Under the pieces are notes generated by a model. It had not been told where the DNA came from. It made no database searches and saw only the letters and a list, made by a program, of their open reading frames with translations. DNA of 64,000 nucleotides from Nitrososphaerota archaeon. Lineage in GTDB: Archaea; Thermoproteota; EX4484-205; JAAOZP01. Below are positions 41,211-59,400 of this stretch, in pieces. Position 1 is the first letter of the stretch. Each line of letters starts with the position of its first letter. The stretch is from contig JAAOZP010000017.1 in NCBI GenBank assembly GCA_011605725.1, positions 256,001 through 320,000 of the forward strand, in the 5' to 3' direction. Made by a program: the position numbers and the translations under genes.

Positions 41211-43850
41211 CTAGAGGCTAGGCTGTTTCTCAACCGCCGCTTTCCAAGCGCCACTAGTAGTTGCGAGAACCGTGTTGAAACAGGGCTTCAGCATCCTGGT
41301 TAACTGCATTACTGCCCCGGAGGAAGTGTAAGTCAGCTGTGGAGTCCTTCTTCTCGCAAGAATCCTTTTAAGCATGAATACGACTACTGTTAAGGCTACT
41401 AGGGATACGGCCAACAGGTAGAGCCATATTGGTATGCCCACGGTGTAAGTTGAAACACCGGTCTGAAACCTGTTGCCAGCGTTGTCAACAGCCTCAACAT
41501 AGTATTGAACCTCTGTGAAGAAGAATTGAGAAGGTATTGAACCCTTGTAAAGGCCTTCTTGAAGACTCATCACTGTCCTCACCCAAGAGGAGCCCTTGTC
41601 TGTGGAGTAGCATAAGTAGACGTCTCTAACACCTGAAGACTCGTCGAAAACTGTGCACACTACTGTCGCAGCCTCTCCGAAAACAGGGTTTGAAGGCCCT
41701 GATAGACCTGTGATTAATGGTGGCTTAGTGTCAAGTATGAGTGTGAACAAATAGCTACACGTGTCTGAATTGTTCAAATTGTCAGTCAGCCTGATGCTCC
41801 AGCTGTGGCTTCCCTCGCTTAAGCTTACAGTCTTAACATACCTGTCCCCGTCTTTAACCATGAACCCGAGGGGAACACCATCTACCGTCAGTTCAATCTC
41901 CCTGACTCCTGAAGAATCAGTAGTCTTGACAATTATAAAGATTGTTTTAGAGTTTGAAAAGAATCTTCCAGATGGAGAAGCATCCTCAACCCTAGGGGGA
42001 GACTTATCTAGGAAGAACTCCAGTTTCCCCTCAGCCTCAGCATTATCAGCCCTGTCCACGCTATAGTACCTTATCTCATGTCTACCCTCAGAATAGGATG
42101 ATAACCCTAATGCAGCGTTGTAAGCCTCCCAAGGACTATCGTCGACCCTGTAAAATATTTTTTTAACACCGCTCAAATCGTCCTCAGCCGAGAAAACAAG
42201 AAGCGTTGAACCAGAGACATAGAGAGTCCCGTTTGCCTCGTGCTTCGGCTCCGTAATAAGTATCTGTGTGAAAGGCGGAACCTTGTCGACGAGAACAGTA
42301 ACGTTAGCTGTAAAAGTGAAGCCCAGGGCTGAGGCTGTTAAAGTATGGTTTCCAACCTCAGTGTCAAAATAGTCTATCTGAACAGTGCTTAAGCCAGCTG
42401 GAATCGTCACGCTGGTTATTCTGGCCATTGTTCCGGAAAGCCTGAACTCTCCTGATGGTGAGGATGTTGAAAGACTCACGGTTACGTTTAACGTGTTAGT
42501 GGCTTCAAAATCATTAACATCCCTCAGAGATAAGTTTAGACGTGAGAAAACCACGCCTCCAGCCATTTTGAAGCTGCGCGGCTCGATTACAAGCTTTGCA
42601 GGAGGCCCTGCTGTAACGTTGAACGCGTTGCTTTCACCGGTTTTCCCAAGACCTATAGTTGTAATTCTCACGCTTCTGCCAACCTTATTGATAGTTACGC
42701 AGCCAGACCATTTCCCATTGCTGAAGACCCCGGTTTTATTAGGGCTGATCGTGCCAGTCGTGTCTGAAAGAATATTCACCCCATCATAATCAGTCTTAAC
42801 ATTCCCATAGATGTCTCGAGCAATTATGGTTATCTGGAAAGGCGTTGCAACCTGCTTCGGAGAATCTACAGTTTCAATCTGGAAACATTCTAATGGACCT
42901 GGTGTAACCCTCAGGTTTTCAGCGTCGCCAACATAATCAGGGTAGTCCACCGCCTTGACACTTATACTCCATTCTCCAGCCTTCTCCTCATAATAGTAGA
43001 AGTCTGCAAACGTGGCGCCATCCCGTATTGTTAACTCCGTTATTGAATCACCGCCCTGCGTCAATGAGAATCTTCTACTTGACGAGTTTGAGTTTGAATC
43101 CAGCCTAACTCTTAAGGATGAGCGCGTAATCCTTTCACCTGTCTCAGTCTCCCTGTAGACCCTCATCTTGATCCAGCCTCCGGCCTGCATGGAATCCCCT
43201 GAGACTACGAGGTTGAGACGAGGCGGGGAATATTGGACTTCCAGATAAGGATGCTTGCTCGAATCATTATGTTCCCTGGAGTAAAACCAGAAAGGACAGC
43301 TAGATGGGCCCATGCCCTCAGCATAATCGCTCAGCATCCAGCCGAAGTTAGGCTCGTAGACAGCACGGTTTCCAGAGACGAATTTAGCCAGGGAGCTTTT
43401 AACATCAAGCTGAAGCCATTTAGGTTTTTCACCTGTTGAAACTGCTGCTACGAATAAGCCTGCATCCGGCTGATTCCTCCAAGTAATGCTGTTCTCATCC
43501 CAGTCTCCCCCAGTAACCTGGTAGCATGCTAAACTCCTGTTTAAATCCGGAGGATCATACATATATATGTTTAAGATGGCTGAAGTAATGATGGATCCTG
43601 GAGGTATTGCGCTTAAATCGAACATTATGAAGGAACGGTCTCGAAAGCCTTCTCTATAGTTAACCCCTATCTCCCAGTTAGAGCCGAAGTTACGGTCAGG
43701 ATCATCCTCGTAAACCACAGCATCCTTCAAAGGGTAGAATACTCTGGTTGACGGGGCTCCCTGTGTTGCTGACGTGTGGAAGGTGGACCCGTAGATAGAC
43801 GTGTAAACCAGCAGTATGGCAACAACAGCGGGTAGCATTATCCTGTTCAA
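41211..43850 (-). CDS. Large cell-surface protein: signal peptide, DNRLRE-like N-terminal domain, Ig-like repeats, C-terminal TM anchor
   Basis: KDAVVYEDDPDRNFG..RSFIMFDLSAIP.G..ITSA.L, W.ENSITW.NQP, FYSRE..PYLEV; several D..PP...D.aGN Ig-like units; TM segment then basic tail. Confidence 0.75.
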   Translation of the reverse strand: MNRIMLPAVVAILLVYTSIYGSTFHTSATQGAPSTRVFYPLKDAVVYEDDPDRNFGSNWEIGVNYREGFRDRSFIMFDLSAIPPGSIITSAILNIYMYDPPDLNRSLACYQVTGGDWDENSITWRNQPDAGLFVAAVSTGEKPKWLQLDVKSSLAKFVSGNRAVYEPNFGWMLSDYAEGMGPSSCPFWFYSREHNDSSKHPYLEVQYSPPRLNLVVSGDSMQAGGWIKMRVYRETETGERITRSSLRVRLDSNSNSSSRRFSLTQGGDSITELTIRDGATFADFYYYEEKAGEWSISVKAVDYPDYVGDAENLRVTPGPLECFQIETVDSPKQVATPFQITIIARDIYGNVKTDYDGVNILSDTTGTISPNKTGVFSNGKWSGCVTINKVGRSVRITTIGLGKTGESNAFNVTAGPPAKLVIEPRSFKMAGGVVFSRLNLSLRDVNDFEATNTLNVTVSLSTSSPSGEFRLSGTMARITSVTIPAGLSTVQIDYFDTEVGNHTLTASALGFTFTANVTVLVDKVPPFTQILITEPKHEANGTLYVSGSTLLVFSAEDDLSGVKKIFYRVDDSPWEAYNAALGLSSYSEGRHEIRYYSVDRADNAEAEGKLEFFLDKSPPRVEDASPSGRFFSNSKTIFIIVKTTDSSGVREIELTVDGVPLGFMVKDGDRYVKTVSLSEGSHSWSIRLTDNLNNSDTCSYLFTLILDTKPPLITGLSGPSNPVFGEAATVVCTVFDESSGVRDVYLCYSTDKGSSWVRTVMSLQEGLYKGSIPSQFFFTEVQYYVEAVDNAGNRFQTGVSTYTVGIPIWLYLLAVSLVALTVVVFMLKRILARRRTPQLTYTSSGAVMQLTRMLKPCFNTVLATTSGAWKAAVEKQPSL

Positions 43851-43933: not shown

Positions 43934-44878
43934 TCATGCGAGCTTCTCGTTAAGCATTTCTACAAAATCCAGGAGTTTTCCGCGTGGAATCATTGCCCCA
44001 GCCGCGTTAGCATGCCCTCCACCTAAGCCTCCGAGCGCCTCGGCAACGCTCGACGTGATCCTGTGAAGATTCCTTAATCCAATAGATCTAATGCTTAGAT
44101 CGATTTTTTCACCATGCTCATCAGCCGCAACCCCGATTATTGTTTCACCGTAAGCCCTAGCGTAGGTTGCAGCCTTTCCAAGCGACCATTCCACGTTCAC
44201 AACGTACGATACATTACCATGAGTCTTCACCAGGCTTTTCACAACTCGGCGCATCTCCTCGTCTCTCTCTGCCTCCCGTAAAGCCATTTCAACCAGGTTT
44301 CTATCAGCACTCGGAAGCTTGTTTTCAGAAAGATAGTTGACGAGGCTTCTCTTAAAATCGAAATCCATCCTCCTGACTCCCTCCAGCGCAGCCACCAAGA
44401 TGCCGGCTTCCAGGTAGAGCTCCCTCTTATCCCATTTTTCAAGCAGTCTCCTTACCCCGGGCGTGTTATCACTATAGTCGCCTATCGCACCGTAGATTGC
44501 AACCCTGCTCATCTCAGGCTCCAGATCATTCTTAAAACAGGTGTAGGCGAGCTCGGAGGCACATGCGCCCCTAACCCCTTTAAGCGTCCTCACAGGCAGC
44601 TTATTCACGTTCAATCCTTGAGGAAGCGGATGGTGATCCAGGTAGATAACCTCGTTTTTTAAACTAAGCCTCTTAAACTCTGAAATTATCTCATTCTTGT
44701 GCTTCGAGGTTAATGCTACATCAAGTATAATGATGCTTCCGGCTTCAATAGACTTAAGCTCTGACAGAAGACCCGCAGGGTTTGTGAATACTACTTTGGC
44801 ATCCCTCCTTGCAGCTAGGACTATTGAGGCTGCGCAGACTCCGTCGCAATCCCCGTGTGCAAGAATAATCTGCCCCAT
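43934..44878 (-). CDS. DHH/DHHA1 phosphoesterase (RecJ-like)
   Basis: HGDCDG, IIILD, YLDHH, GAIGD, SIRS, GGGHANAAG. Confidence 0.88.
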   Translation of the reverse strand: MGQIILAHGDCDGVCAASIVLAARRDAKVVFTNPAGLLSELKSIEAGSIIILDVALTSKHKNEIISEFKRLSLKNEVIYLDHHPLPQGLNVNKLPVRTLKGVRGACASELAYTCFKNDLEPEMSRVAIYGAIGDYSDNTPGVRRLLEKWDKRELYLEAGILVAALEGVRRMDFDFKRSLVNYLSENKLPSADRNLVEMALREAERDEEMRRVVKSLVKTHGNVSYVVNVEWSLGKAATYARAYGETIIGVAADEHGEKIDLSIRSIGLRNLHRITSSVAEALGGLGGGHANAAGAMIPRGKLLDFVEMLNEKLA

Positions 44879-44946
44879 TCTCCACCTAACTTTGAAACCC
44901 CGCAGTATAAAAAGATGCCTCATCCAAGCAGTGTTTAGCTCACGCT

Positions 44947-46167
44947 TTAAAGCTCTTTCTGCGGATTCATGTTTGCGAAGAATTCTTTAATCTCGTTTAA
45001 ATCACCAGCATAGGAGTTTACGATCCTCGCTTCAACCTCCCTAACGAATTCCCTTGTGAACTCAACGGGCAGCGTAATGTTCTCGTCGATAAGGTCTATT
45101 GCGAGCGGCAGTCCCGTCGCCATGTTGAAGTTTTCAATGCTTGAGAAAAGCATATTCATCACGTAATTCTCTGAGCCGAGCGGAACCTCAAGCTCGAAAG
45201 GCGGATTCTCCTCGCTCACTTTGACTTGAAGCCTGTTAAGCCTGGATTGAAGCTTCTCAGCATAATCCTCGGGCACGCCCAGAACCTTCGCCAGCCTCTC
45301 CACAGCCCATTCGACAGCCTCCTCGAAAGCATCCTTAGGGTCACGGTATTTTTCTCGAATCAAAAGCTCGCTAACCCTGCTGTAAACCCTTTGAAGCTCA
45401 GCTTTTCCAAGAAGCTCCTTATAATCCAGGATTGCAGGCGGATTCATCAAATTATGCAGTATCTGCTTATCCAGATGGTTTACTAAAGGGCTTTTCACAC
45501 CGTCTTTAACAGACAGCCAGCCTCCTATAGCTCTGCTCCTACCTCTTTTAATGATTCCGGCGCATCTTCCAGAATCCATTAGCACACTAGTTATTTTCAA
45601 TATTTCTCCAGTGGTTTTAAAGATTTCCTCCCTGATTTCCCTGGGGACAGGAAGGCTCTTCGCAATCCTCGCGATCCTGAAGAGAGGATACGCGAAGCTG
45701 AGGAAGCTTCCGTCTAAAAGAAGCAGATCCGGGTTTCTCTCAAGAGCCTTCAGAGCCGCCACTCTTTCAAGAAGGGTTTCCTTAACGCTTAGAATTATGC
45801 TGAAAAGCTCTCTACTGTAGGCTTGGCTTTCACCTATGTTTCCAGGAAGATAACCCTCGTCAACAATGTTCTTACCCTTAACCATGATGAACCCTGCAGC
45901 GTACACGGAGAATTTTGCGCCAATAGTCTCAGCAGGCCTCGGGGAGAAGGAGCCGTCGACCGCAGCAATAGATGTTTCCCCTGACTGTCCGAAGCTTAAT
46001 GTTCGCACGTATGGAGCTATCCTGTGTTTCACAGACTCCATTATGAGCCTGAAACCGTCTATTACCCCTATCAGCCTCCTGGCCTCGTCTTCAGCCTTCT
46101 CGTAGAACTGCTCTTGAAGGTCTATCGGGAGCCTGCTCCATGCGGTTTCAGAAGCCATGGACATCAT
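44947..46167 (-). CDS. nurA: NurA-family nuclease
   Basis: IAAVDGS, LLE..AA, LLLLDGS, GIIKR, GLPLAI..IDE; start overlaps the herA stop. Confidence 0.85.
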   Translation of the reverse strand: MMSMASETAWSRLPIDLQEQFYEKAEDEARRLIGVIDGFRLIMESVKHRIAPYVRTLSFGQSGETSIAAVDGSFSPRPAETIGAKFSVYAAGFIMVKGKNIVDEGYLPGNIGESQAYSRELFSIILSVKETLLERVAALKALERNPDLLLLDGSFLSFAYPLFRIARIAKSLPVPREIREEIFKTTGEILKITSVLMDSGRCAGIIKRGRSRAIGGWLSVKDGVKSPLVNHLDKQILHNLMNPPAILDYKELLGKAELQRVYSRVSELLIREKYRDPKDAFEEAVEWAVERLAKVLGVPEDYAEKLQSRLNRLQVKVSEENPPFELEVPLGSENYVMNMLFSSIENFNMATGLPLAIDLIDENITLPVEFTREFVREVEARIVNSYAGDLNEIKEFFANMNPQKEL

Positions 46168-47633
46168 TTCCCCGGCTTGAAAGATATTAAGAGAGGTATC
46201 GGCGACGGGTTCGCCTTCCCAACGAAGTAGAATTGGCCTGGCTTCAGCGAGAGAAGATACTCCCTCTGAATCCCGTAGGGCTTAAGCCAGTTATCAGCCT
46301 CCTGCATGTCGAGCGGGTGAAGAGCTCCGAAGAACTGCGTGTTAAGGTTTCTTCTTACAGCAGCGTTTATACCTATGTCTCCAGCTATCCCTTGAGATAT
46401 TAAAACGATGCAAAGCCTATGTTTCCTCCCCAGAGCACAGAGGTTCTTAATGTGTTCCGTAGTCTCGTATTGGATTCCCCGGGGCTCCCATGGAGCGTAT
46501 TGCGGCCCCTCGTCTATAACGAGCGCTACTCCAAGCGACTCCCCTAGCTCCATACCCTCCTCCAGAAACCTTGCGAGAGAGTTGAAGAAGGAGAGCTTCT
46601 CGTCACTCCCCACCAGGCTCATGTCCACGATTCTAAGACCCTTCTCGTCTCTCCTCAAATCCTCCACGAGGCCCTCGATGCTTAACGAGCCTCTGACAGC
46701 CTCCAGGTCGATCGGCCTAAGCTTCTTGAAACCATACTCCAACCGGCGTAGAGCAGTCCTTTTAAAATCCTCTCTAGTCGAGGACTGTCTAATACTGTTT
46801 TCCAAATGATTCTTCATGTCTAGAAACATTTCTTCAGACGATTTCTGACTCACCTCCTCCCATCTTCTCGAAACATAGTCTTCAAGAGCCTCCCTTACAG
46901 GGTTAGAATCCCTAGCTTGCCCAGTATAGCCGAAGTGCTCGGCCTTCTCCAGTATGTATCTAACTATCGCCTCTTCATCAAGCTTAAGGTAGGAAATTGG
47001 AACCGCCTTATCCTTATAGTGTGGAGCATAGTCTTCACCACTCCAGTCTAGAATCAGAACTTTGAAACCGGATTCAAGAAGAACAGGGACTAGGACGAAC
47101 CTTGTCAACCAGGACTTACCGCTTCCCGTTGCGCCAAACACGCCGACATGGTATGGCAGGAAGGAGCTGTCGAAAGGTATTTTCCAATCCTCATGCCCCT
47201 CTAGACAAGCGTTCCAGACAACCGGCTTGTTCCTCGCAACGTACTCGAGAGGATTGGAAACACCCGGCTTAAACATGTAGACGCTGCTTCTAGGAGGTAT
47301 TATCATCCGGTTCTGCTCAATCCCGTTATCGGTTAAAACCCCTATCACCATTATTTCGAAAGTATATATCTCTCTGGCTCCTGAAGGCACTCCCCCCCTC
47401 TTAGCATATGCGACACTCGGCCTGTAAGCGTTAGCCCTAAGAGCCTCGTTTACCCCGCTTCCGCTTCTAAGAACCCCAAGCACTTCGCCAATAGGCGTCT
47501 CAATCACAACAATCTCCTCAGCCCTAACCTTAAGCTCCTTCTCCTCCTCCAATAGAAGCCTAGCCCTAGTTTCGCTGGAGTCGCTAGCAACAATACCGAT
47601 CTTCTCCAGGTTCCTATCGTCGAGCAGACGCAT
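46164..47633 (-). CDS. herA: HerA-family ATPase/helicase (HAS barrel plus DUF87)
   Basis: HVGVFGATGSGKS, ILDWSGEDY, LVIDEG, GRKHRL..LISQ. Confidence 0.88.
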   Translation of the reverse strand: MRLLDDRNLEKIGIVASDSSETRARLLLEEEKELKVRAEEIVVIETPIGEVLGVLRSGSGVNEALRANAYRPSVAYAKRGGVPSGAREIYTFEIMVIGVLTDNGIEQNRMIIPPRSSVYMFKPGVSNPLEYVARNKPVVWNACLEGHEDWKIPFDSSFLPYHVGVFGATGSGKSWLTRFVLVPVLLESGFKVLILDWSGEDYAPHYKDKAVPISYLKLDEEAIVRYILEKAEHFGYTGQARDSNPVREALEDYVSRRWEEVSQKSSEEMFLDMKNHLENSIRQSSTREDFKRTALRRLEYGFKKLRPIDLEAVRGSLSIEGLVEDLRRDEKGLRIVDMSLVGSDEKLSFFNSLARFLEEGMELGESLGVALVIDEGPQYAPWEPRGIQYETTEHIKNLCALGRKHRLCIVLISQGIAGDIGINAAVRRNLNTQFFGALHPLDMQEADNWLKPYGIQREYLLSLKPGQFYFVGKANPSPIPLLISFKPGK

Positions 47634-47929: not shown

Positions 47930-48472
47930 CTATGGAATTACTGCATGCCGAATGAGCTTTGAAAAGATCGCGTATAGACAGATGCCAACCAGGGTTCCGC
48001 TGAGGATCCACAGCGGCTGTCCTTCTAAAACCCCTCTGAAGAATGCGAAGAGCGCTACACATATTCCAATGATTAGAGGTATGAGTTTTAAACCGGATGC
48101 TGGCCTTCTTGTAGCCGGTGCCGTAACCCTCTGCCTCTCAACACGTAGGGTTGCCTCAGAACCCTTAGCCTCCCTGATTCCTGAACGCGTTTGCAAGACC
48201 TCTGAAACTATAATCCTAGCGGCTTCACTAACAGCGTAGACTTCAGCGTTCTCAACCCTTCTCTTCAAGACAAGCCCGTTCCTCTCAAGAACACCCAGGT
48301 GATGGCTTAAGAGCTGTTTAGAATAGCCTAGGGATTTAGATAGTGATGTAGCAGTATCCTCTTTCTCTAGCAGTTTCACCAGTATTCTCATCCTGTGAGG
48401 CTCAGCTGCAGCCTTTATCATGCTAAGCTTCTCCGGCTCCAGCTCCGTCTTTCTGCCTTCGCTCGGCAACAC
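47930..48472 (-). CDS. ArsR-type winged-HTH regulator with two C-terminal TM helices
   Basis: AEPHRMRIL.KL...TATSLSKSLGYSKQLLSHHL.VLE..GLV, then two hydrophobic helices. Confidence 0.8.
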   Translation of the reverse strand: MLPSEGRKTELEPEKLSMIKAAAEPHRMRILVKLLEKEDTATSLSKSLGYSKQLLSHHLGVLERNGLVLKRRVENAEVYAVSEAARIIVSEVLQTRSGIREAKGSEATLRVERQRVTAPATRRPASGLKLIPLIIGICVALFAFFRGVLEGQPLWILSGTLVGICLYAIFSKLIRHAVIP

Positions 48473-48733
48473 CTCTGAAAAGCGCCTAACGCCTTTTAAG
48501 GATTTATGAGAAAGATTTCTGAAACCCGGAGAGTGGTCATGTAAAGTTGTCGAACAAAGTAGGCAGATGTTTGCTAAGGTAAACGGTTTCTACTTGCTGG
48601 TAAACAGAGAATCCAGATGAGACCGTCATCACCCCCAACACCTGCAGTAGCCTTTATCCGCCTGGTTTTCAAGAGGATTAGGGCTTAAATTCTAAGCCCC
48701 GGTCTGGCTGAGAACAGCATATATAAATCTTCC

Positions 48734-48790
48734 GTCAGTAAATTTTTACCTACAGTCAGCGAAAATTTTCGCTTACCTCATACTATAAAT
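48734..48790 (+). promoter_or_regulatory. Perfect 16-bp palindrome AGCGAAAATTTTCGCT (48758-48773) plus a degenerate upstream copy, just 5' of a TATA box
   Basis: gtcag-taaatttttacc-tac / gtcag-cgaaaattttcgct-tac, then CTATAAAT at 48783-48790. Confidence 0.55.
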
Positions 48791-48824
48791 ACACGTTTAA
48801 CAATGCTTCTATACGTGGTGGGGA

Positions 48825-50183
48825 ATGAGCATCGTTAAGACCATCCTGAAGCTCGTTGCAGTAATCGTTTCAGGAAGCCTGGTTAAAAAGCTTTTAGATT
48901 CTATCGGGTATTCCCTCGGCTTAGACCTGGGAGGCTTGACGAGCCTGATCACCGTGGCGGCAATGGTGTTCTTAACCATATACCTATTTTCACCGGGAAA
49001 GTATTTTAAAAACGGTTTGAGAAGGGTCTTTGAAAAAGTATTCTCCTTCCTACTCATCTGGTTGACAGCAGCATTCTCCTCAGCCCTCTTCCACACTAAG
49101 TACTATACTCAAATAGGATTCGTAGTGGCACTCCTATACATTGTCCTAACTATTCGCAAACCCGTGAACATTGGGATTAGGCTGAATAGGCTGAGGATAG
49201 TAAGCAAGGAGGAGCCTGCCCAGCCTGAAGACCACATGATCCTCCTGTCCCTTGCGCCAGTTCCTAGAGTTGCTTTCCTTCACGGGTTTGGCCCAAGCGG
49301 CTTACTGAAATTGTTAACAGGAGGGGCGAGGCTCAGCCTGAAGCTTCCTGAAGACGTCTTTATAGAATCCTTTAAGCATCGCCAGACGCTTAGGCTCAAG
49401 GGAAACCTCTCCACCCTTGTGGAAGCTGTGGGAAAGGGCGTAACGGGCAGTATCGCCATACTCTGTGAAGCCAAGCCCGCAAGAGAGTTTATGAAGATTG
49501 AGGTTGCTTCTGATAATCCGCAGGCTCTCGAGGGGTTCACTGAGAAGCTGAAGGAGACAGGCCCAGGCTCCCAGCATGGTGTACGGCGGGCTTTGGAAGA
49601 ATGGCTCTCTCTGAAACCATACGTAACACCGGTTCCTGAGCTGCTGTATCCAAACCCTATTCTGCTAGCTGGGAGGCTGCTGATAGTGGGTGAGAGAAGG
49701 AATGCGGAGGATCTTGCCCTCCAACTATGCCTCTCGCAGTTAAGGAGGAACTCGGTGAGCCTCGTGGTGGAAGGGAGAGCCGGGAACGTTGAGGATGATG
49801 TGAGAATGAGGCTTGTTGAAAAAGGTTTTAAGCCTAGTGGGAACAGGCTGCTTAAGAAGCCTTTTGAAACCTACAGGTGTCGCGACGGGATGGAGGTGGT
49901 CTTCGCCGACAAGCCGTCCGGCGGGGCCTTTCTTAAGAAAAAACCGTCTAAACCCTTAGTCGCCGTCTGGTTTAGAGACCTTGTTCAAAACCTCGATGTG
50001 AACGCCCCGATCAGAATACTGACGCTTGGAAAACCATGGGCGTGTTCAAGCTTTGAAGCGGACAGCATCATCCTCATAGGCTGCGAGAAGGAGCTGGTCG
50101 AATCGTTTCTACCATCCAGAGGACTTGCACTCGAGGGGAAGACTGTCCTGGTCTCACGACAGGGGGTGAGGGTGCTGAAATGA
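48825..50183 (+). CDS. Membrane protein (about 4 N-terminal TMs) with a degenerate C-terminal P-loop/RecA-like domain
   Basis: Hydrophobic residues 1-110. RLLIVG..AEDLALQL, LVAVWFRD and ADSIILIG follow the RecA-fold pattern but lack GKT and DE. Confidence 0.55.
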   Translation: MSIVKTILKLVAVIVSGSLVKKLLDSIGYSLGLDLGGLTSLITVAAMVFLTIYLFSPGKYFKNGLRRVFEKVFSFLLIWLTAAFSSALFHTKYYTQIGFVVALLYIVLTIRKPVNIGIRLNRLRIVSKEEPAQPEDHMILLSLAPVPRVAFLHGFGPSGLLKLLTGGARLSLKLPEDVFIESFKHRQTLRLKGNLSTLVEAVGKGVTGSIAILCEAKPAREFMKIEVASDNPQALEGFTEKLKETGPGSQHGVRRALEEWLSLKPYVTPVPELLYPNPILLAGRLLIVGERRNAEDLALQLCLSQLRRNSVSLVVEGRAGNVEDDVRMRLVEKGFKPSGNRLLKKPFETYRCRDGMEVVFADKPSGGAFLKKKPSKPLVAVWFRDLVQNLDVNAPIRILTLGKPWACSSFEADSIILIGCEKELVESFLPSRGLALEGKTVLVSRQGVRVLK

Positions 50184-51403
50184 GGGTTGTGTCCGAGCAG
50201 AGCCTAGGATTGCTCGAGGCTTCTGCGAGAATAGGCGTAGCCGGGAGCAATTTCAAGGCTGCTCTCATATACCTGATTCAAAACGTGTTTGAGGATGCTA
50301 AGGTAATCCTGTTCGACTTAAACGACGAGTTTAGCTGCGTGGCAAGAATAGGTTCGACTAGATACTATGAGGTTGTGAAACACGGCATTAACCCGATTAA
50401 ACCTCTGAATCGTGAAAAGGTTGAGCAGTACGTCGAATCAGTTGTGGAGATACTTGACTATTGCTTCGGGACTTTCAACATGAAGAGCATGGTGGCGAAA
50501 GCGCTTTTGAACAGCGTCTTAAGGTCTCCGGAAACCACGATACCTGAGGTTGCTTCAACACTTGACTTTGAAACCCCGGAGGGAGGGTTATCCGTGTACA
50601 CGCCTCTTGAACCATTCACCTTCGGAACCCTGAGGCAAGCGTTTGGCAGAAGGGAAGCGTTCGAGTTCAGCAGCGTTTTGGAGTCAGGAATGGTTTTCAA
50701 CCTCTCCGGGTTTACAGTGGCTTCGCACAAGGTTTTCGCAACGCTTTTGACGCTGGCGAAGCTTATCCAGCTTGAACCCAAGCATAGGACGCTCGTAGTA
50801 GTATGCTACCCAAGCCTGATATGGCCGAGAAACAGGAGGTTTGACAACGCTAGGCTCTTCGTTGAAGAATCCCTAATCGGAGAACTTGAAAGGAAGGAGT
50901 ATTCAATAGTGTTCGCTGAGAAAAACCTGTCACAGGTTTCTGAAAGGGTTTTGGAGAACCTTGACTCGGTAGTCTTCTCACCTCCCTCTGAGGCCACTAA
51001 CCCGTGGAGGATGAGCCCCGCGCCCGAGAGGAATGCTTCAAACTACTCCATGCTCATCCTTGTTAAGAATGGGGAGTATGGTTTTATAGAGGCTCCTGTG
51101 AACATGCTTCTTAAGCCCCTTAGCGAGAAGGAGAGGGAGGCACGTAAGCCAGCCATGAAAATCTTAAGCCTTGACGAGGGGCTGAAGGAGGGGCTTGGCG
51201 AATCCTATGAGGCAGGAGCCAAGATAATTGGGAAGCTAAGGGGACTGGGTGGAAAAGCTGGCTTAAACGAGTTCATAGAAGAAGTGAGAGCCTCACTTGG
51301 CGCAGAGGGCCTCAGGGCTCTTGCCGCGCTCATAAGGCAGGGTTATCTAAAACAAGTTCGCGAGGGTGAGAAGCAACTCCTGGTTTTAACAGGAGGAGAT
51401 TAG
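50180..51403 (+). CDS. Degenerate HerA/VirB4-like (DUF87) ATPase with C-terminal winged helix
   Basis: RIGVAGSNFK (broken Walker A), VILFDLNDEF, GINP, MVFNLS, LVVVCYP (broken Walker B), ERK.YSIVFAEKNLSQVSERVLEN, LAALIRQGYL. Confidence 0.6.
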   Translation: MRVVSEQSLGLLEASARIGVAGSNFKAALIYLIQNVFEDAKVILFDLNDEFSCVARIGSTRYYEVVKHGINPIKPLNREKVEQYVESVVEILDYCFGTFNMKSMVAKALLNSVLRSPETTIPEVASTLDFETPEGGLSVYTPLEPFTFGTLRQAFGRREAFEFSSVLESGMVFNLSGFTVASHKVFATLLTLAKLIQLEPKHRTLVVVCYPSLIWPRNRRFDNARLFVEESLIGELERKEYSIVFAEKNLSQVSERVLENLDSVVFSPPSEATNPWRMSPAPERNASNYSMLILVKNGEYGFIEAPVNMLLKPLSEKEREARKPAMKILSLDEGLKEGLGESYEAGAKIIGKLRGLGGKAGLNEFIEEVRASLGAEGLRALAALIRQGYLKQVREGEKQLLVLTGGD

Positions 51404-51404
51404 G

Positions 51405-52268
51405 ATGAGGAAGCTGAGCACCGGTATTAAGCCGCTGGACGAGCTGACCGGAGGCCTTCCAACAGGTGTTTCAAACCTGGTTTACGGAAGCCCTGGAACA
51501 GGAAAGACCACGATTTCCCTGACCCTGGTGGCTGAGGCTTTAAAGACCTGTAGGGAGAAGGATGTGGTGATAGTTGTAAAAACAGAGGAGTGGGACCCCG
51601 ACCGGCTGAAAACAATATGCGTCGAGAGGGGTATTAGGGAGGAAACCTTGTCAAGGATTAAGATGTATCAGGCCAGCGGCCTCTTCGAGCAGCATAAGGC
51701 GATAGTTGAGACAATACCTAGAGAAGTTGATAAGAACGACTGGGTTCCAGTGCTTATGATCGTCGACTCACTGGTTCCCCATTATCATGCGCAACTATTG
51801 AACACGCCGACTCAACACTTAGCATCCACAGCGAGGATTCTTCAAGGCAAGCTTTCGCTTGAAGTCAACACGCTCGTCGGAATGGCGACGGGCTACGAGT
51901 CGCTTCTCTTAATAACGAGTTGGCGGAGGAGTGAAGCCGCTAGGAGTTTTCAAGAGAAGTCTAGGAGGGAGATGGCGGAAAGCATAGATAAGAAGAGTTT
52001 CTCGATAGACCCTGAAGCCGGGTTCGGTGCCAGGGAGTTCGACGTGATTGGGGGGCAGCATCTCGTTTACATGAGCAAGACCATTCTTAGGATGGTGTCG
52101 ACAAGCCTGGGCGAGGACGTTAAGGCGGTGATCTTGGAGAAATCGCTTTCAAGACCGTCAATGACCTGCTGCTTAGTCAGGATCACTGAGGCAGGCATAG
52201 CACCATATAAGGATATTAATCCGGCACCCGTCGCAGAGATGATTAAGAAGAAAATCCTGAAGGAATAG
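51405..52268 (+). CDS. RecA-superfamily ATPase, RadB/RadA-paralog-like
   Basis: LSTGIKPLDELTGGLP.G...VYGSPGTGKTT, KTE, LMIVDSL, IGGQHL.YMSKTILRM, C.VRITEAGI. Confidence 0.8.
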   Translation: MRKLSTGIKPLDELTGGLPTGVSNLVYGSPGTGKTTISLTLVAEALKTCREKDVVIVVKTEEWDPDRLKTICVERGIREETLSRIKMYQASGLFEQHKAIVETIPREVDKNDWVPVLMIVDSLVPHYHAQLLNTPTQHLASTARILQGKLSLEVNTLVGMATGYESLLLITSWRRSEAARSFQEKSRREMAESIDKKSFSIDPEAGFGAREFDVIGGQHLVYMSKTILRMVSTSLGEDVKAVILEKSLSRPSMTCCLVRITEAGIAPYKDINPAPVAEMIKKKILKE

Positions 52269-53419: not shown

Positions 53420-56400
53420 TTAAGCATCACTAGCTATCGAAACACTCAGCTTCCTGACAAGCGCCTTGTCGAAGACCTTCCTCTGCTTAAACTCCTCCTG
53501 CTTCCCCTGGTTCCACTGCTCTACGGGTCTCAGATAACCGACGACCCTCGAGTACACTTCTGTTGTTCTTCCACACTTTGGACACGTGTGCTGCTCTCCC
53601 GAGAGATACCCGTCCTCCGGGCAAATGCTGAAGGTTGGTGTAAGCGTGAAGTAGGGCAGCTTAAAGTTTTCACAAATCTTCCTCACCAGTGACGCGACGG
53701 ATTCAACTGGAGGGTTGCTTTCGCCTAACCACACGTGAGCCACAGTCCCCCCGGTGTATTTTGTTTGAAGAGGATCCTGGAGTCTAAGGTACTCCCAGAG
53801 GTCGTCAGTATAGTAGACGGGCAGGTGGGTTGAGTTCGTGTAGTATGGTGCAGCACCCTTCTTAACCTCCTCCTCGTTCGCAACAATTATGCTCGGGTAG
53901 GTTTTCTTATCTATCCTCGCGAGCCTGTGTGAAGTCCCCTCTGCCGGGGTGGCCTCAAGATTGTATATACTCCCGGTTTCCTCCTGGAAGTCTTGGAGTC
54001 TCTTCCTCATGTAGTCTAGGACTTTGATTGTGAAGCTGAGGCCTTCTGGGTCGCCGATGCTGCATCCTAGGAAGTTTAGGCAGGCTTCGTTCATGCCGAT
54101 TAAGCCTATTGTGCTGAAATGGTTTTTCCAGTATTGGCCGAAAGCCTCCTTGATGTGTCTCAGGTAGAACCTGGAGTATGGGTATAGGCCTGCCTCCGTG
54201 AATTTTTCAAGCCATTTCCTCTTGATTTCTAGGACGTCTTTCGCGAGGACCATCATCCTGTCGAGCCTGGCGAAGAACTCGCCCTCGCTCTTCGACAGGA
54301 AGCCTATCCTAGGCATGTTTATCGTGACGACGCCTATGCTATTGCCACACCAACAAGATTTGCCGTTTCTTCTAACCATTATCACGTGGTTAGGAACTTC
54401 TACGCAATACACCTTCCCCTTGTAATATACCTTGCTGATGTTTCTTTTCCTTAGCCTGTAATATTTAGATTTTTGTACTCCTATTGTCCAGCATTTTTCA
54501 GTATTTATAATTCTTCCTTTTATTTTCGCTCTCTTTTTGCTCTTTCTTATAGATGAAATCATCCCTATCTTTAAAATTATTTCTTGCATGTCTGCAGCCA
54601 ATCTGTCTGAGGAAGTCCAGTAAGTAGTTTGACCAGTAGTTTTCCTTATATGACCATTTCCCTTCACCATCCAATCGAATAAAATTTTCAGCTGTCTTGC
54701 ACTTAAATTCTTTATTTCTTGAGGTATGTACTTTTCATATTTATTTCCAAATTGTCTAAGGTAATTCCAAAGCTGTTTATTGCAAATAACAAAGCTGCGA
54801 GCTTCTTCGCGATAGTTGAAAGGCAACCTATCTAGCAGCTCTTTTATTTCTTTCCTCTTCTTTCTATTAACTTGAGTAATAAAGATTCTGTAGCCATGCT
54901 CTGCAGCAATATTTTCATTATCAACGCTGCCTTCAGTAAGCCAGATACCGAAAAACTTTAACCAGTCATCCATTTTTATTTTTAAGGGCTGAGTTTCATA
55001 TCTTACCCTCGTCCTTTCTTCATTTCCGTATTTTTCTTTAGTACAAATATTGTAGACAGTTACAGGATCACAGTCAAAGTTCTCAGCTATCTGATAAATG
55101 CTCACTCCCTCGGTTTTTAACTTTCTAATTGCTTCCAATTCCTCTTTCGAGAATCTAGAAACAGGTCCTGTGCCACTGAGAATCTCTACTGAAGGCAAGA
55201 CAAAATATTCTTCCTCGTTCCCATTCCAAACACCTTGCTTAGGAATTCTATGCGAGTTTGGATTAAAATCTTTTGCTTCTACAAACTTGTTCCTCCATAC
55301 TTTTCCATCCCGATATTCAACAAACATTCTATGGTTTGGTGTTACTAAAAGGTCTAAGGATTTATGCTTAAAACGAATCATTTCTCCATCCCAATCATAT
55401 TCAAAAATTCTAATCGGCTTATGAATCTCTATTGTTCCATCTTGTTTCCTTGTGAAAATTTCGTCTTCAAGAGTGAGATCTTTAAATTTCTTCCAACCTT
55501 TTGTCGTAAGAATTTCTGTTTCCTCATCATAACACCCGGTTAGGGGGTTGGCGCCGAATAGGCCTCCGCCCCTCTTCTTCAATTCTCTTTTGTCGAGCCT
55601 CAAATGGCAGCAGTTATGCGTAATGTTTCCGAGAGAATGAATAAACAAGTGGTTCCTTTCAAGCTCTACGTCAAAAAACTCCTGTTCTTTTTCAAGCTCT
55701 ATTAACTCACATTTTTTCACTCTTACGAACATTATGTCCCCGTTAATGAATTTCTTGCTCTCCTTAGTATGCGCATCATATCTGGATAGAGTTTCCACTC
55801 CAACCATCCTACTCTTGTTTAAGCCAGGCACCGCATAAGTCGATTTCGCCATCCGCCCAGGAACTCTTTCAAATAGAGTTGGAGTAGCTTGATTACCAAT
55901 CGAGTTTATTTTCGATTTTTTATGCTGGATGTAGATTCTTTGGCTTTTCCTCTTCTCCTTATAGCAAACGGGTATCCCTAATATGGTGAACAGGATTGCC
56001 AAATCCCGCGCCAATTCCCTATCATTAAGATGTATCTCTTTATTTCTCTCGTAACCATCACCTAGGAAGAAGTATTTTAGAAACGCTTTTATAACTGTTG
56101 GCGGAGAATTAAAAATCACTTGTGGCAACCTCCCGTATTTTTTGAATCCAGCATTATAGAAAGCTCTTGCAATGTCTGTAGAATAAACATAGAAGTAACG
56201 AGTATCATATCGCGTATCCTCTTTCTCTCTAACCGAACACTTTAATACGTCTTTTATAAGTTTTTTAACCTTTTTTCTCAACAATGGATTATTATTCCCG
56301 AAAGTGAATTGTAATCCTTTTGGCAACCTATAGGTCTTCAAGTTCTTTCTATTTTCAAAAAGATAGTTTCCATCAGCCGTGAAGAAACCTAATAACTCCG

Positions 56401-59400
56401 CAAGCTTCTCATCGAGAACAAAGCTTCCGATCTTCTCATAGTTGGTAGCGAGAGCGTGACACGAAGATTTTAAAGTTAAAACTATGTCGCCAGGTTTTAC
56501 GTCCTTCGCTAATTTATTGACTATTCCATTTATTGTAACAACGGGAATTAAATGATTTCTTGAGACTCTGATTGTTTTACCGTCTTCTGTAACTATTTTT
56601 ATCATCTTATTATCAGTGACCTTCAGAAAGCGTTTGACCTTCACCCATTCTGTTTTCCAAGTTTCTGGATTAAGAGATAGAACCTCGACTTCTTTAACAG
56701 GATCAGCCCACCCATCGTTTTTAAATTCTCCAGCATATTTTTCAACTACTTGACCTATAGTTTCTCTTCTCACACTTCCACTATTTCTAATCAAAAGTTC
56801 TTCATCAGGGTGCAAACACATTGAGCGAACGTCTTCAGGATTCATGTCGGAGTTGATGAAGTTTGCGAAGTATGGTATTCCGTATTTCGCGGAGGTTTCT
56901 AATACTGTTCTAGTGGTTTCATCGTTCCATTCGAAATCCCTGGTTATGTTTATGGTTGGGATGGGGAAGGTATTGTGGACTAGCAATTGATCGGCAACGA
57001 AGTTTTCGCTTTCTGTAGAGAAATCATAAACCATGCCATTAGAAGGAGTTGCCTTTTCGATTTTTTTGATCTTCAAAAATAGAATATTATTCTTCTCCAC
57101 TTCCTTTAAAGCTGGAGGAATTTCGATTTTTAACCTTTTCGCATATTCAATCACGTTTTTAACCTTTTGTAGAGAAGTAGAATTGGAATGCGAGATTCCA
57201 AATTTCTTAGAGATTCTGATTTTCGTATTTCGATATTTCCTGCCTAAAGAATCGAAATAATACGGTTCTTTTTCTAATATTTTCTCAAAAACCATTTCTA
57301 GGCCGCTTTCCTTTATCGGAATTTTGGAAATGCTGTATGAATCCTTGGGATGCAGTTTTCTATCTCGCCAGACAGTTATTCTCCATGTTGGTTTTCCATC
57401 TCGATAATACTCGGTTAAAGTATGGAAAACTCCTAATTGCTTTAAAAGAACAGAGATACCATATATTAGCTCTCGCGAAACAGAGTTGACAACAATGTTT
57501 TCAGTTAACCAAGCATCACCCTCAAAATAGGCGAGGAGGAAACTTTTTTTAATTTCTTGCGGAGCTTCGAAAATTATCTGAGGAACCCTCCTTCCAGTAC
57601 CGGTCCCAACCTTAAATATTTCAGTTATTACCATTCTCAAGAGTTTTGAATGCACTCTTACCTCTATCAGGTTCCTATCCTTAACTTCGCGTAGGCAGAC
57701 GGGAACCCCACGGAAGATTCTCCTTACTAATTGGGCTACGCGGATAGCCTTTTCTCTCTCTTCTTTCAGGTTGAACCCCAAGCTTATCCCACCTTTTTCA
57801 GCTGAACCCTCAGCGCAATAATACCCTAAGAACTCTGCTAATTCTTTTGTCAGTGGAAGAAGGTTCCTCAACTTTATTGAAGACCCTCTAAGACTTAACT
57901 TCGCCTTTGACAAGTCGAACTCGCTTAAGTAAGCTATATTTTCCAGCGGAAAAACCGGGACATCGTAGGAGTATTCATAGATCCGCTTACCGTATTTCCG
58001 CCTTTGTACAGCTTTTCTAGTTTCCCTGTAGAGTTTTCCCCCTTTGTAAACATCCCTTATGTAAACTCCTCTTACCCCATTCTTAGCAAATTCATTGGCC
58101 AGAGAAATCACCTGGGGCTTTCTTTCTTCTAAGGGCATGAATTTCGGCATGATTAGATAATCACCCTTTTGCAACATTGACGCTTTGAAGCTTTGAAGCT
58201 TTCCCTCTTTCAACACCATAACTGAATGGGAAGGGGTAACCTTAATGTTAAAGCCGCCGCCCGTAAATATTTTTAGAAGACTTTCTGTTGGATGACGAAC
58301 CAGAAAGTTTACTTTGCACCAGTCTATCTTGCCGTCTTTTAATCCTAAGGCCTTTATATCCTGAGCCCTTACGTCTAAAACTTCACAATTGTTTTCCTTG
58401 ATGTAAAGCGGTTTTCCTTTTTCCATCCATTCATCGATATACTCTCCAATTTTTACTAATTTCATCCGTCCAGAATTCTTTATTGGACACAGGCATTCCC
58501 CATCAACACTAAAGACTCTTCCGACAGCGTCTCCCTCAAGCATTACCTCGGCGAGAGCCCTGTTGAAAATATTCATTTCCTCCTGGAATTCCCCGTAGGT
58601 GGCGTCTAGAACCTCCCCGCCTATTATGACGGGTTCGTCACGCATGAAGCCCGGAACCTTGAGGTCGAGTGTCACATTTGAGAAGGGCGTGTTATGGAAA
58701 ACCAGGAGTCCAGCTCCTCCAATAAAGTTCTCTTGAGGCAAATCAACCGAGATATCGTATTCATATTCTTTATCATAGTTGAACTTTTCAACGCCTAGGC
58801 AAATCCTTGCTTCGAAGTCATTAACAAAGTATGTTTTCTTCGGTTTTGAATTTTCTTTGAAAATTCGAATTACGAACCTGTCTCGCCAATTTTTATTATT
58901 CCTATTGAGTTTTTCAGTGTAAACGGCGAATCTAAAATTGTTTTGGCTTAGAAGCAGACTTAGACTTGTGCTCAGTTTTCTCGATGTAGTTAAATAATCC
59001 CAATATTTCGAATATTCTGAACCATCGCCTTTCAGAAGGGTTTTAATAAAGATCTTCTGATATTTGGGAGAAAGGTTGAAGATAAACCAAGGAACAACTT
59101 TATTAAATGATAGGTAGCCGCAGGTTCTGCTAACGACTTCCGCTAAGAGTCCTCTTCCAGTTATTTCAAGAACTGTTTTAGTTTTTCTTCCATTTCTAGA
59201 ATATCCTTTGCCGCGAGCCACTTGACCTAAGGCATTTAAAGCCCTCAAAAGCTTGATGATGTCTCTTGCGTTTTTAGAAGGCGGTTGAGAAACATAGAGG
59301 GGAGTCGAAATAGCTGTATGACCTTCAGAAATATACCAAGCACAAAGTTTTACGAAGTTTTCAAGTAGCTTCCCATTTAAAAACCTCGGATACCATACAT

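Follow-up and report, generated by a model that had tools for sequence, protein, structure and literature searches.

Why would an archaeon maintain two catalytically dead ATPases, one of them anchored in the membrane, in a single operon with a RecA-family paralog whose ATP-binding residues are retained? The question is raised by three genes in a 64,000-nucleotide stretch of DNA (the window), C7:256001-320000 of the genome (2.23 Mb, 93% complete) of a hot-spring archaeon of Candidatus Brockarchaeota. All lie on the + strand: gene 1 (48825-50183) encodes 452 residues, a membrane anchor joined to a reduced RecA/ASCE fold; gene 2 (50180-51403) encodes 407 residues, a dead VirB4/CedD-type ATPase domain followed by a winged helix; and gene 3 (51405-52268) encodes a RadB-related RecA-family paralog of 287 residues. 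Genes 1 and 2 share the ATGA at 50180-50183 and a single base (51404) separates genes 2 and 3, so the open reading frame coordinates bear out the tight coupling claimed in a preliminary description of this DNA.

Here we report that these genes belong to a module that is real, old and undescribed and that, by the tests run, is not a member of the Ced, HerA-NurA or RadB systems. No description of it was found in the literature searched, subscription papers being outside its coverage, and the preliminary description had likewise known of no system with this composition. In Brockarchaeota the operon would represent one version of a module that is old in Thermoproteota and was assembled from type IV secretion and Ced parts, and we give about an even chance to the reading that it acts as a membrane-tethered recombination-mediator platform, made from such parts, on the receiving side of DNA transfer. 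It would thereby resemble in its working a Ced/type IV secretion accessory attached to a mediator of the RadB type.

Gene 2 is a conserved pseudo-ATPase related to CedD and TedD

In Pfam and NCBIfam searches genes 1 and 2 had no match, gene 3 alone of the three being recognized, and a profile search of PDB sequences with gene 2 found nothing. The predicted model of gene 2 (pLDDT 85.7) shows an ATPase domain at residues 1-315, with the RecA-type core and all-alpha insertion domain of the FtsK-HerA superfamily, and a winged helix at about 331-405. The closest structural match is VirB4 (4ag5; Z 22.7, root mean square deviation 3.6 over 301 residues, Foldseek TM-score 0.56), followed by DndH, HerA (4d2i; Z 18.6) and TrwB, while the winged helices matched by residues 341-405 (Z 8.2-8.3) include that of Rpa2. 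The HerA/VirB4 scaffold, the loss of Walker A and Walker B and the added winged helix were thus correctly recognized from the outset. An "RK" that had been listed among the retained scaffold motifs was not: its arginine is off register with the CedD arginine finger and is not conserved in the family.

Walker A, Walker B and the glutamine sensor are all substituted in gene 2, which also lacks the arginine finger. A wider family with the same domain layout was recovered by exhaustive profile search, and none of the 27 members sampled across the phylum has the Walker A Lys-Ser/Thr. Given this loss, gene 2 is probably structural and does not hydrolyze ATP. The family plainly illustrates how an old prokaryotic pseudo-ATPase can be kept under selection.

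By sequence, the nearest characterized relatives of gene 2 are CedD and TedD (Saci_0667, SiRe_1715; NF053655), and not CedB. The kinship with Ced/Ted ATPases that had been proposed therefore stands, with a different protein as its closest point. CedD is the top NCBIfam match both for gene-2 relatives (E 2.8e-18 for one family member) and for the long counterparts of gene 1 described below; the best family member reaches 66 bits against the equivalog cut-off of 600, and the window proteins have no match. CedD/TedD and the module belong to one superfamily and share parts (transmembrane anchor, N-terminal domain, VirB4/HerA-type ATPase), but gene 2 is dead, carries a winged helix and is coupled to recombinase paralogs, and no CedA, CedA1 or CedB was found in the genome. 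A quickly built tree, in which branches are long, places the dead ATPases in one group (support 78) that lies with VirB4, CedB and CedD and apart from HerA; because of that modest support and those branches, a single origin of the dead family is not proven.

Gene 1 is a reduced membrane anchor

Sequence and predicted model agree on four hydrophobic helices in gene 1 (residues 2-20, 37-55, 72-90 and 92-110). In the model (pLDDT 74.5) these are followed by an alpha/beta middle domain at about 120-265 and by a reduced RecA/ASCE fold at 267-452, whose matches (Z 10.3 to Rad51 3lda, Z 10.1 to VirB4 4ag5) are tied at Z about 10 among Rad51, VirB4, EssC and KaiC; whole-chain Foldseek and Atlas searches returned weak P-loop matches only. 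Residues 267-452 contain no Walker motifs, consistent with the earlier description of about four transmembrane helices and a RecA-like C-terminal domain without them.

That gene 1 is dead holds for the window protein; the same position elsewhere is occupied by proteins with intact Walker A and B. Proteins of 355-402 residues in related lineages are homologs of gene 1 (hhalign probability 89, E 2e-6), and in its place other lineages encode a 670-residue DUF87 protein whose Walker A is nearly intact, or VirB4-like ATPases of 872 and 961 residues with all catalytic motifs. The link to the 670- and 872-residue ATPases is positional, sequence homology not being demonstrated (E 0.25-0.42). The simplest reading is that gene 1 is a membrane VirB4-like ATPase shrunk to an anchor in Brockarchaeota. 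Sister families also encode a conserved pair, a 250-283 residue protein with transmembrane and helix-turn-helix segments and, after it, an intact VirB4-like ATPase (L182:6964-9967, L183:1332-4706, L185:6959-9868); two ATPases of these pairs group with the long gene-1 counterparts in the ATPase tree.

Gene 3 is a divergent RadB-related paralog

The best NCBIfam match of gene 3 is RadB (TIGR02237), with a score of 75 bits where the cut-off is 172, and a gene-3 family member aligns full-length to RadB 2cvf (E 9e-17). Like RadB, gene 3 consists of an ATPase core without the N-terminal HhH domain; it differs in having inserts of about 30 residues, in its ties to membrane proteins and in its position in the tree, a separate clade (95/92) that neighbors RadB-like proteins and is distinct from RadA and KaiC-like proteins. 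The preliminary description called it intact: Walker A, the catalytic glutamate and Walker B are indeed retained, but an invariant tryptophan replaces the sensor glutamine at the gamma-phosphate sensor position, and the basic patch of RadB (K/R-H-R; R-H-R in 2cvf) is missing, reading K-S-L in the window. Some distant family members keep K-H at this patch.

The same genome encodes two full-length RadA proteins (C11:75579-76682 and C7:377873-379021), neither of which falls in the operon-linked RadA group described below, and a KaiC-like aRadC. With these ordinary recombinases present elsewhere, gene 3 is an extra, module-specific paralog. RadB is a recombination mediator that binds RadA and promotes recombination (PMC5480776), and by analogy gene 3 has the look of a mediator-type paralog and not of an enzyme that carries out strand exchange. 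The complex predicted for genes 2 and 3 scored 0.00 against a mark of 0.32, a result that is evidence in neither direction.

The operon is maintained by purifying selection

Genes 1, 2 and 3 are adjacent in all 17 genomes of the genus compared and also in two sister families; the module is single-copy in every genus member, and in all 17 gene 2 is free of internal stops. The ratio of nonsynonymous to synonymous substitution rates (Ka/Ks), computed against seven relatives, is 0.29-0.39 for gene 1, 0.16-0.22 for gene 2 and 0.04-0.08 for gene 3, the last comparable to the constraint on HerA (about 0.05), and it remains low inside the dead ATPase domains. The three genes are thus maintained by purifying selection and are not decaying. 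A survey of gene neighborhoods, one of the checks proposed at the outset, found conserved co-occurrence, extending to the wider forms considered below.

A divergent regulator accompanies the module

The original three-gene composition holds for genes 1 to 3 and missed a fourth, divergently transcribed gene (47930-48472, - strand), which encodes an ArsR-type regulator (Pfam HTH_5, E 2.4e-8) with two C-terminal transmembrane helices at residues 127-145 and 156-174 (the ArsR-TM protein). A gene combining helix-turn-helix and transmembrane segments is divergent to the module, or within about 3 kb of it, at most module loci in many families, and Ka/Ks for the window gene is 0.23-0.37. The ArsR-TM gene belongs to the module and likely encodes the local regulator of the operon.

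The promoter (48738-48791, + strand) contains palindromic boxes at 48738-48749 and 48758-48773 and a TATA box at 48784-48791, all conserved across 12 genus members. A matrix built from these sites scored 29.6 at the site in the window, which was in its training set, and 16.9 at the next site in the genome, and the genome scan revealed no regulon; the palindromes are likely a local operator for the ArsR-TM protein, which would probably control the operon through them. A second conserved repeat lies nearer the arsR gene (48560-48605), with GGTAAAC/GTTTACC palindromes in relatives that are degraded in the window, and may be a second operator. The sequence ATTTTC, 13 bases before the TATA box, resembles the Sulfolobus UV element (PMC5817253); this is a weak lead because the sequence reads ATTTGC in half of the genus and the genome scan showed no regulon.

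The module takes several forms across Thermoproteota

The separate genes 1-2-3 are found in Brockarchaeota and on some other contigs. In other families the anchor is fused to the dead ATPase in a protein of 535-700 residues that adjoins gene 3. A third form, in Methanosuratincola, other Methanomethylicia, Nezhaarchaeales, others and one genome of the Brockarchaeota order, comprises a transmembrane protein with a VirB4/CedD-like N-terminal domain, the dead ATPase with its winged helix, a small protein and a second full-length RadA, followed in many families by a SWIM-motif protein and then a degenerate RadB-like gene. The soluble domain of the separate anchor in this RadA form resembles the VirB4/CedD N-terminal domain (E 6e-5, TM-score 0.59). 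The operon RadAs retain the HhH domain and canonical motifs and form one group (93/98), with the housekeeping RadA separate in all five genomes of this form that were checked. A protein of 100-150 residues with a SWIM-type CxC-x15-17-CxH motif directly follows the second RadA in 13 of 13 cases (L091:8554-8862, L104:8422-8772, L219:8373-8678 and ten more), without a match to the Pfam SWIM profile; neither it nor the small "middle" protein was found in the window genome (best E 0.32 and 0.06). In about 17 families, then, recombinase paralogs dedicated to the module are genetically linked to a CedD-type scaffold.

In the fourth form, two Caldarchaeum genomes carry Ced-like genes and the module in a same-strand cluster of about 25 kb (L212:1-12565, L213:1-12236, L174, L175). 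The cluster contains a pilin-like gene, a CedA-like gene (E 8.5e-8), a 1300-residue CedA-related membrane protein, two intact ATPases, of which one is CedB-like (E 1.5e-19), and the dead ATPase with its winged helix, together with a Hel308-type helicase, ParB, gene 3, an AAA+ ATPase, a site-2 protease and further ATPases.

The full-length dead ATPase was present in 37 of 80 Thermoproteota genomes, a hand-chosen panel that is enriched in positives and was partly the source of the search profile, and usually lay beside the gene 3 paralog or a second RadA with its SWIM protein. CedA-like genes were found in 16 of the 80, overlapping with the dead ATPase in the two Caldarchaeum genomes only, which is to be taken as a pattern and not as a test because related genomes are not independent.

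Candidate DNA-transfer machinery in the Brockarchaeota genome

Sulfolobales cannot import DNA without CedD, a membrane ATPase (PMC11823120, PMC11868833). The window genome gave no match to a CedA/TedA channel with NF041796, a broadened CedA profile or TrbL, searches that a very diverged channel could escape, and the best match to the CedA1/TedC pilins, a short and divergent family searched with a six-sequence profile, had E 0.18. The locus itself holds no active VirB4-like ATPase. Since both ATPase domains are dead and the locus contains no channel, these genes cannot take up DNA by themselves, and the proposal of a DNA uptake machine is not upheld for a self-contained one.

The closest gene-2 paralog in the genome is an intact CedD-like ATPase (C11:62416-64275), whose gene closes a type IV pilus operon (C11:62416-67749, - strand) that also encodes a secretion ATPase, two platform-like proteins and a pilin-like gene; a T2SSE ATPase was confirmed at one orthologous locus. 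This operon occupies a conserved site beside the adenylate kinase and thermosome genes (also L098, L100, L119-L122, L177, L180 and L184), and the cedD of Sulfolobales likewise adjoins a thermosome gene (L124, L125). These observations suggest a pilus-linked DNA pump in lineages where CedA was not found. One Brockarchaeota genome has a VirB4-like gene with small membrane genes (L181:6481-11960) that looks like an integrated conjugative element.

A proposed recombination platform at the membrane and its alternatives

The best argument for a role in recombination is that two recombinase-family clades adjoin the same dead ATPase, joined in other forms by the SWIM protein, the helicase and ParB. 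Gene coupling and the fusions, and these only, lead us to infer that the products form a hetero-oligomer. In such a platform gene 1, by virtue of its transmembrane helices, would tether the complex to the membrane's inner face, and gene 2 would probably be a structural subunit that docks either on gene 1 or on an active CedD-like pump from another locus, its winged helix binding DNA or recruiting partners. Gene 3 would bind ATP and, by analogy with RadB, help RadA assemble on membrane-located DNA; the candidate pump delivering this DNA is the intact CedD-like ATPase of the C11 pilus operon.

Several observations weigh against this reading. There was no match to CedA, CedA1-like pilin, CedB, VirB6/TrbL or ComEC in the 93% complete genome, several families that carry the module showed no pilus-linked CedD-like gene, and across the panel the module and CedA never occur together outside Caldarchaeum. 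The Caldarchaeum cluster is itself patchy, the gene 3 family being present in 3 of 12 genomes of that genus, and it could be a mobile element that acquired the module (no tRNA lies near it within the stretches fetched). Gene 3 lacks the basic patch and sensor glutamine of RadB, and the functional evidence is all comparative.

A more specific version is possible, if doubtful: in a widespread archaeal machine, a DNA-pump scaffold has become a membrane-bound recombinase loader that hands incoming DNA to a dedicated RadA or RadB-like protein in lineages without a Ced channel found (Brockarchaeota, Methanomethylicia, Nezhaarchaeales and others), entry possibly being by the pilus operon and its CedD-like pump. 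To our knowledge, no DNA-exchange route is known for most uncultured Thermoproteota; the module supplies specific proteins for testing, and it is present in Methanosuratincola, for which there are complete genomes. In the Ced/Ted systems, the pathway by which imported DNA is processed and reaches RadA is unclear (PMC11823120). The eukaryotic Shu complex consists of a SWIM protein and Rad51 paralogs (PMC5727457), and the RadA form of the module has a SWIM-motif protein and often a degenerate RadB-like gene. The likeness is an analogy only, and the SWIM-motif protein is not part of the window's form; if the loader version is true, its SWIM and RadB-like subunits could represent that complex's precursor among prokaryotes.

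Among the alternatives, the one that survives best is that the module repairs or recombines the cell's own chromosome, its type IV secretion-derived parts serving as a tether without any DNA transfer. We consider it rather unlikely. The lack of a detectable channel in nearly all module-bearing genomes, the single-copy inheritance and a constraint on gene 3 like that on HerA are all as such a role would have them, but the characterized relatives of genes 1 and 2 are all translocation motors, the Caldarchaeum cluster unites the module with a CedA/CedB-like set, and a channel that has diverged could have gone undetected, the identity between TedA and CedA being 13% (PMC9905601).

RecA-fold regulators of archaeal pili are known, and FlaH or KaiC-like proteins are partners of the archaellum. 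Gene 3 and the dead ATPases might in the same way gate the assembly of a pilus or secretion machine without acting on DNA, a switch that would suit ATP-binding residues kept without basic patch or sensor glutamine, and a membrane-bound regulator linked to the module. We regard this as improbable: the partner in many lineages is a full-length canonical RadA with its HhH domain, followed by the SWIM-motif protein, the Caldarchaeum cluster adds a helicase and ParB, and gene 3 groups with RadB-like proteins, apart from the KaiC-like ones.

A defense or exclusion module that senses foreign DNA of viruses or conjugative elements at the membrane is very improbable: HerA-fold scaffolds do occur in anti-phage complexes (Sir2-HerA among the matches) and a membrane location suits the sensing of entry, but the operon encodes no nuclease or other effector and, unlike defense islands, is stably inherited in single copy among housekeeping genes. 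That the operon is the decaying remnant of an integrated conjugative element beside an ordinary RadB is scarcely credible: archaeal elements of this kind bear VirB4/VirD4 pairs (PMC6563490) and the gene-1 position does shrink from 961 and 872 residues with intact Walker A/B through 670 to 452 and 355-402, but selection and distribution largely refute decay, given genes side by side and a stop-free gene 2 throughout the genus, Ka/Ks well below 1 even in the dead domains, and a Walker A lost in every family member sampled.

Related systems and neighboring genes

The VirB4/VirD4 ATPases of type IV secretion are likewise two tandem ATPase-fold genes, one of them membrane-anchored, and VirB4 is the best structural match of gene 2. 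The module differs in that both copies are dead, the locus has no VirB6, relaxase or pilin, and the genes are chromosomal and vertically kept.

HerA of the HerA-NurA system has the same fold as gene 2, and a herA-nurA pair adjoins the module in the window, where a HerA-like ATPase, a NurA-like nuclease and a DHH/DHHA1 gene occupy 43934-47633 (- strand) without mre11 or rad50. Gene 2 lacks the HAS barrel (in the model), the active motifs and a NurA partner, and groups away from HerA. The herA-nurA-DHH genes were considered as part of the module and rejected, their adjacency being confined to one subclade of the genus. Elsewhere the genome carries another herA-nurA pair (C5:49141-51889) and a canonical nurA-herA-mre11 cluster (C7:124685-128784).

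On the - strand of the window, 41211-43850 encodes a secreted multi-domain surface protein of 879 residues that is anchored C-terminally, and 53420-61900 an anaerobic ribonucleotide reductase of 2826 residues (GC falling to about 39%) that, as read from its sequence, apparently contains several inteins with homing-endonuclease domains.

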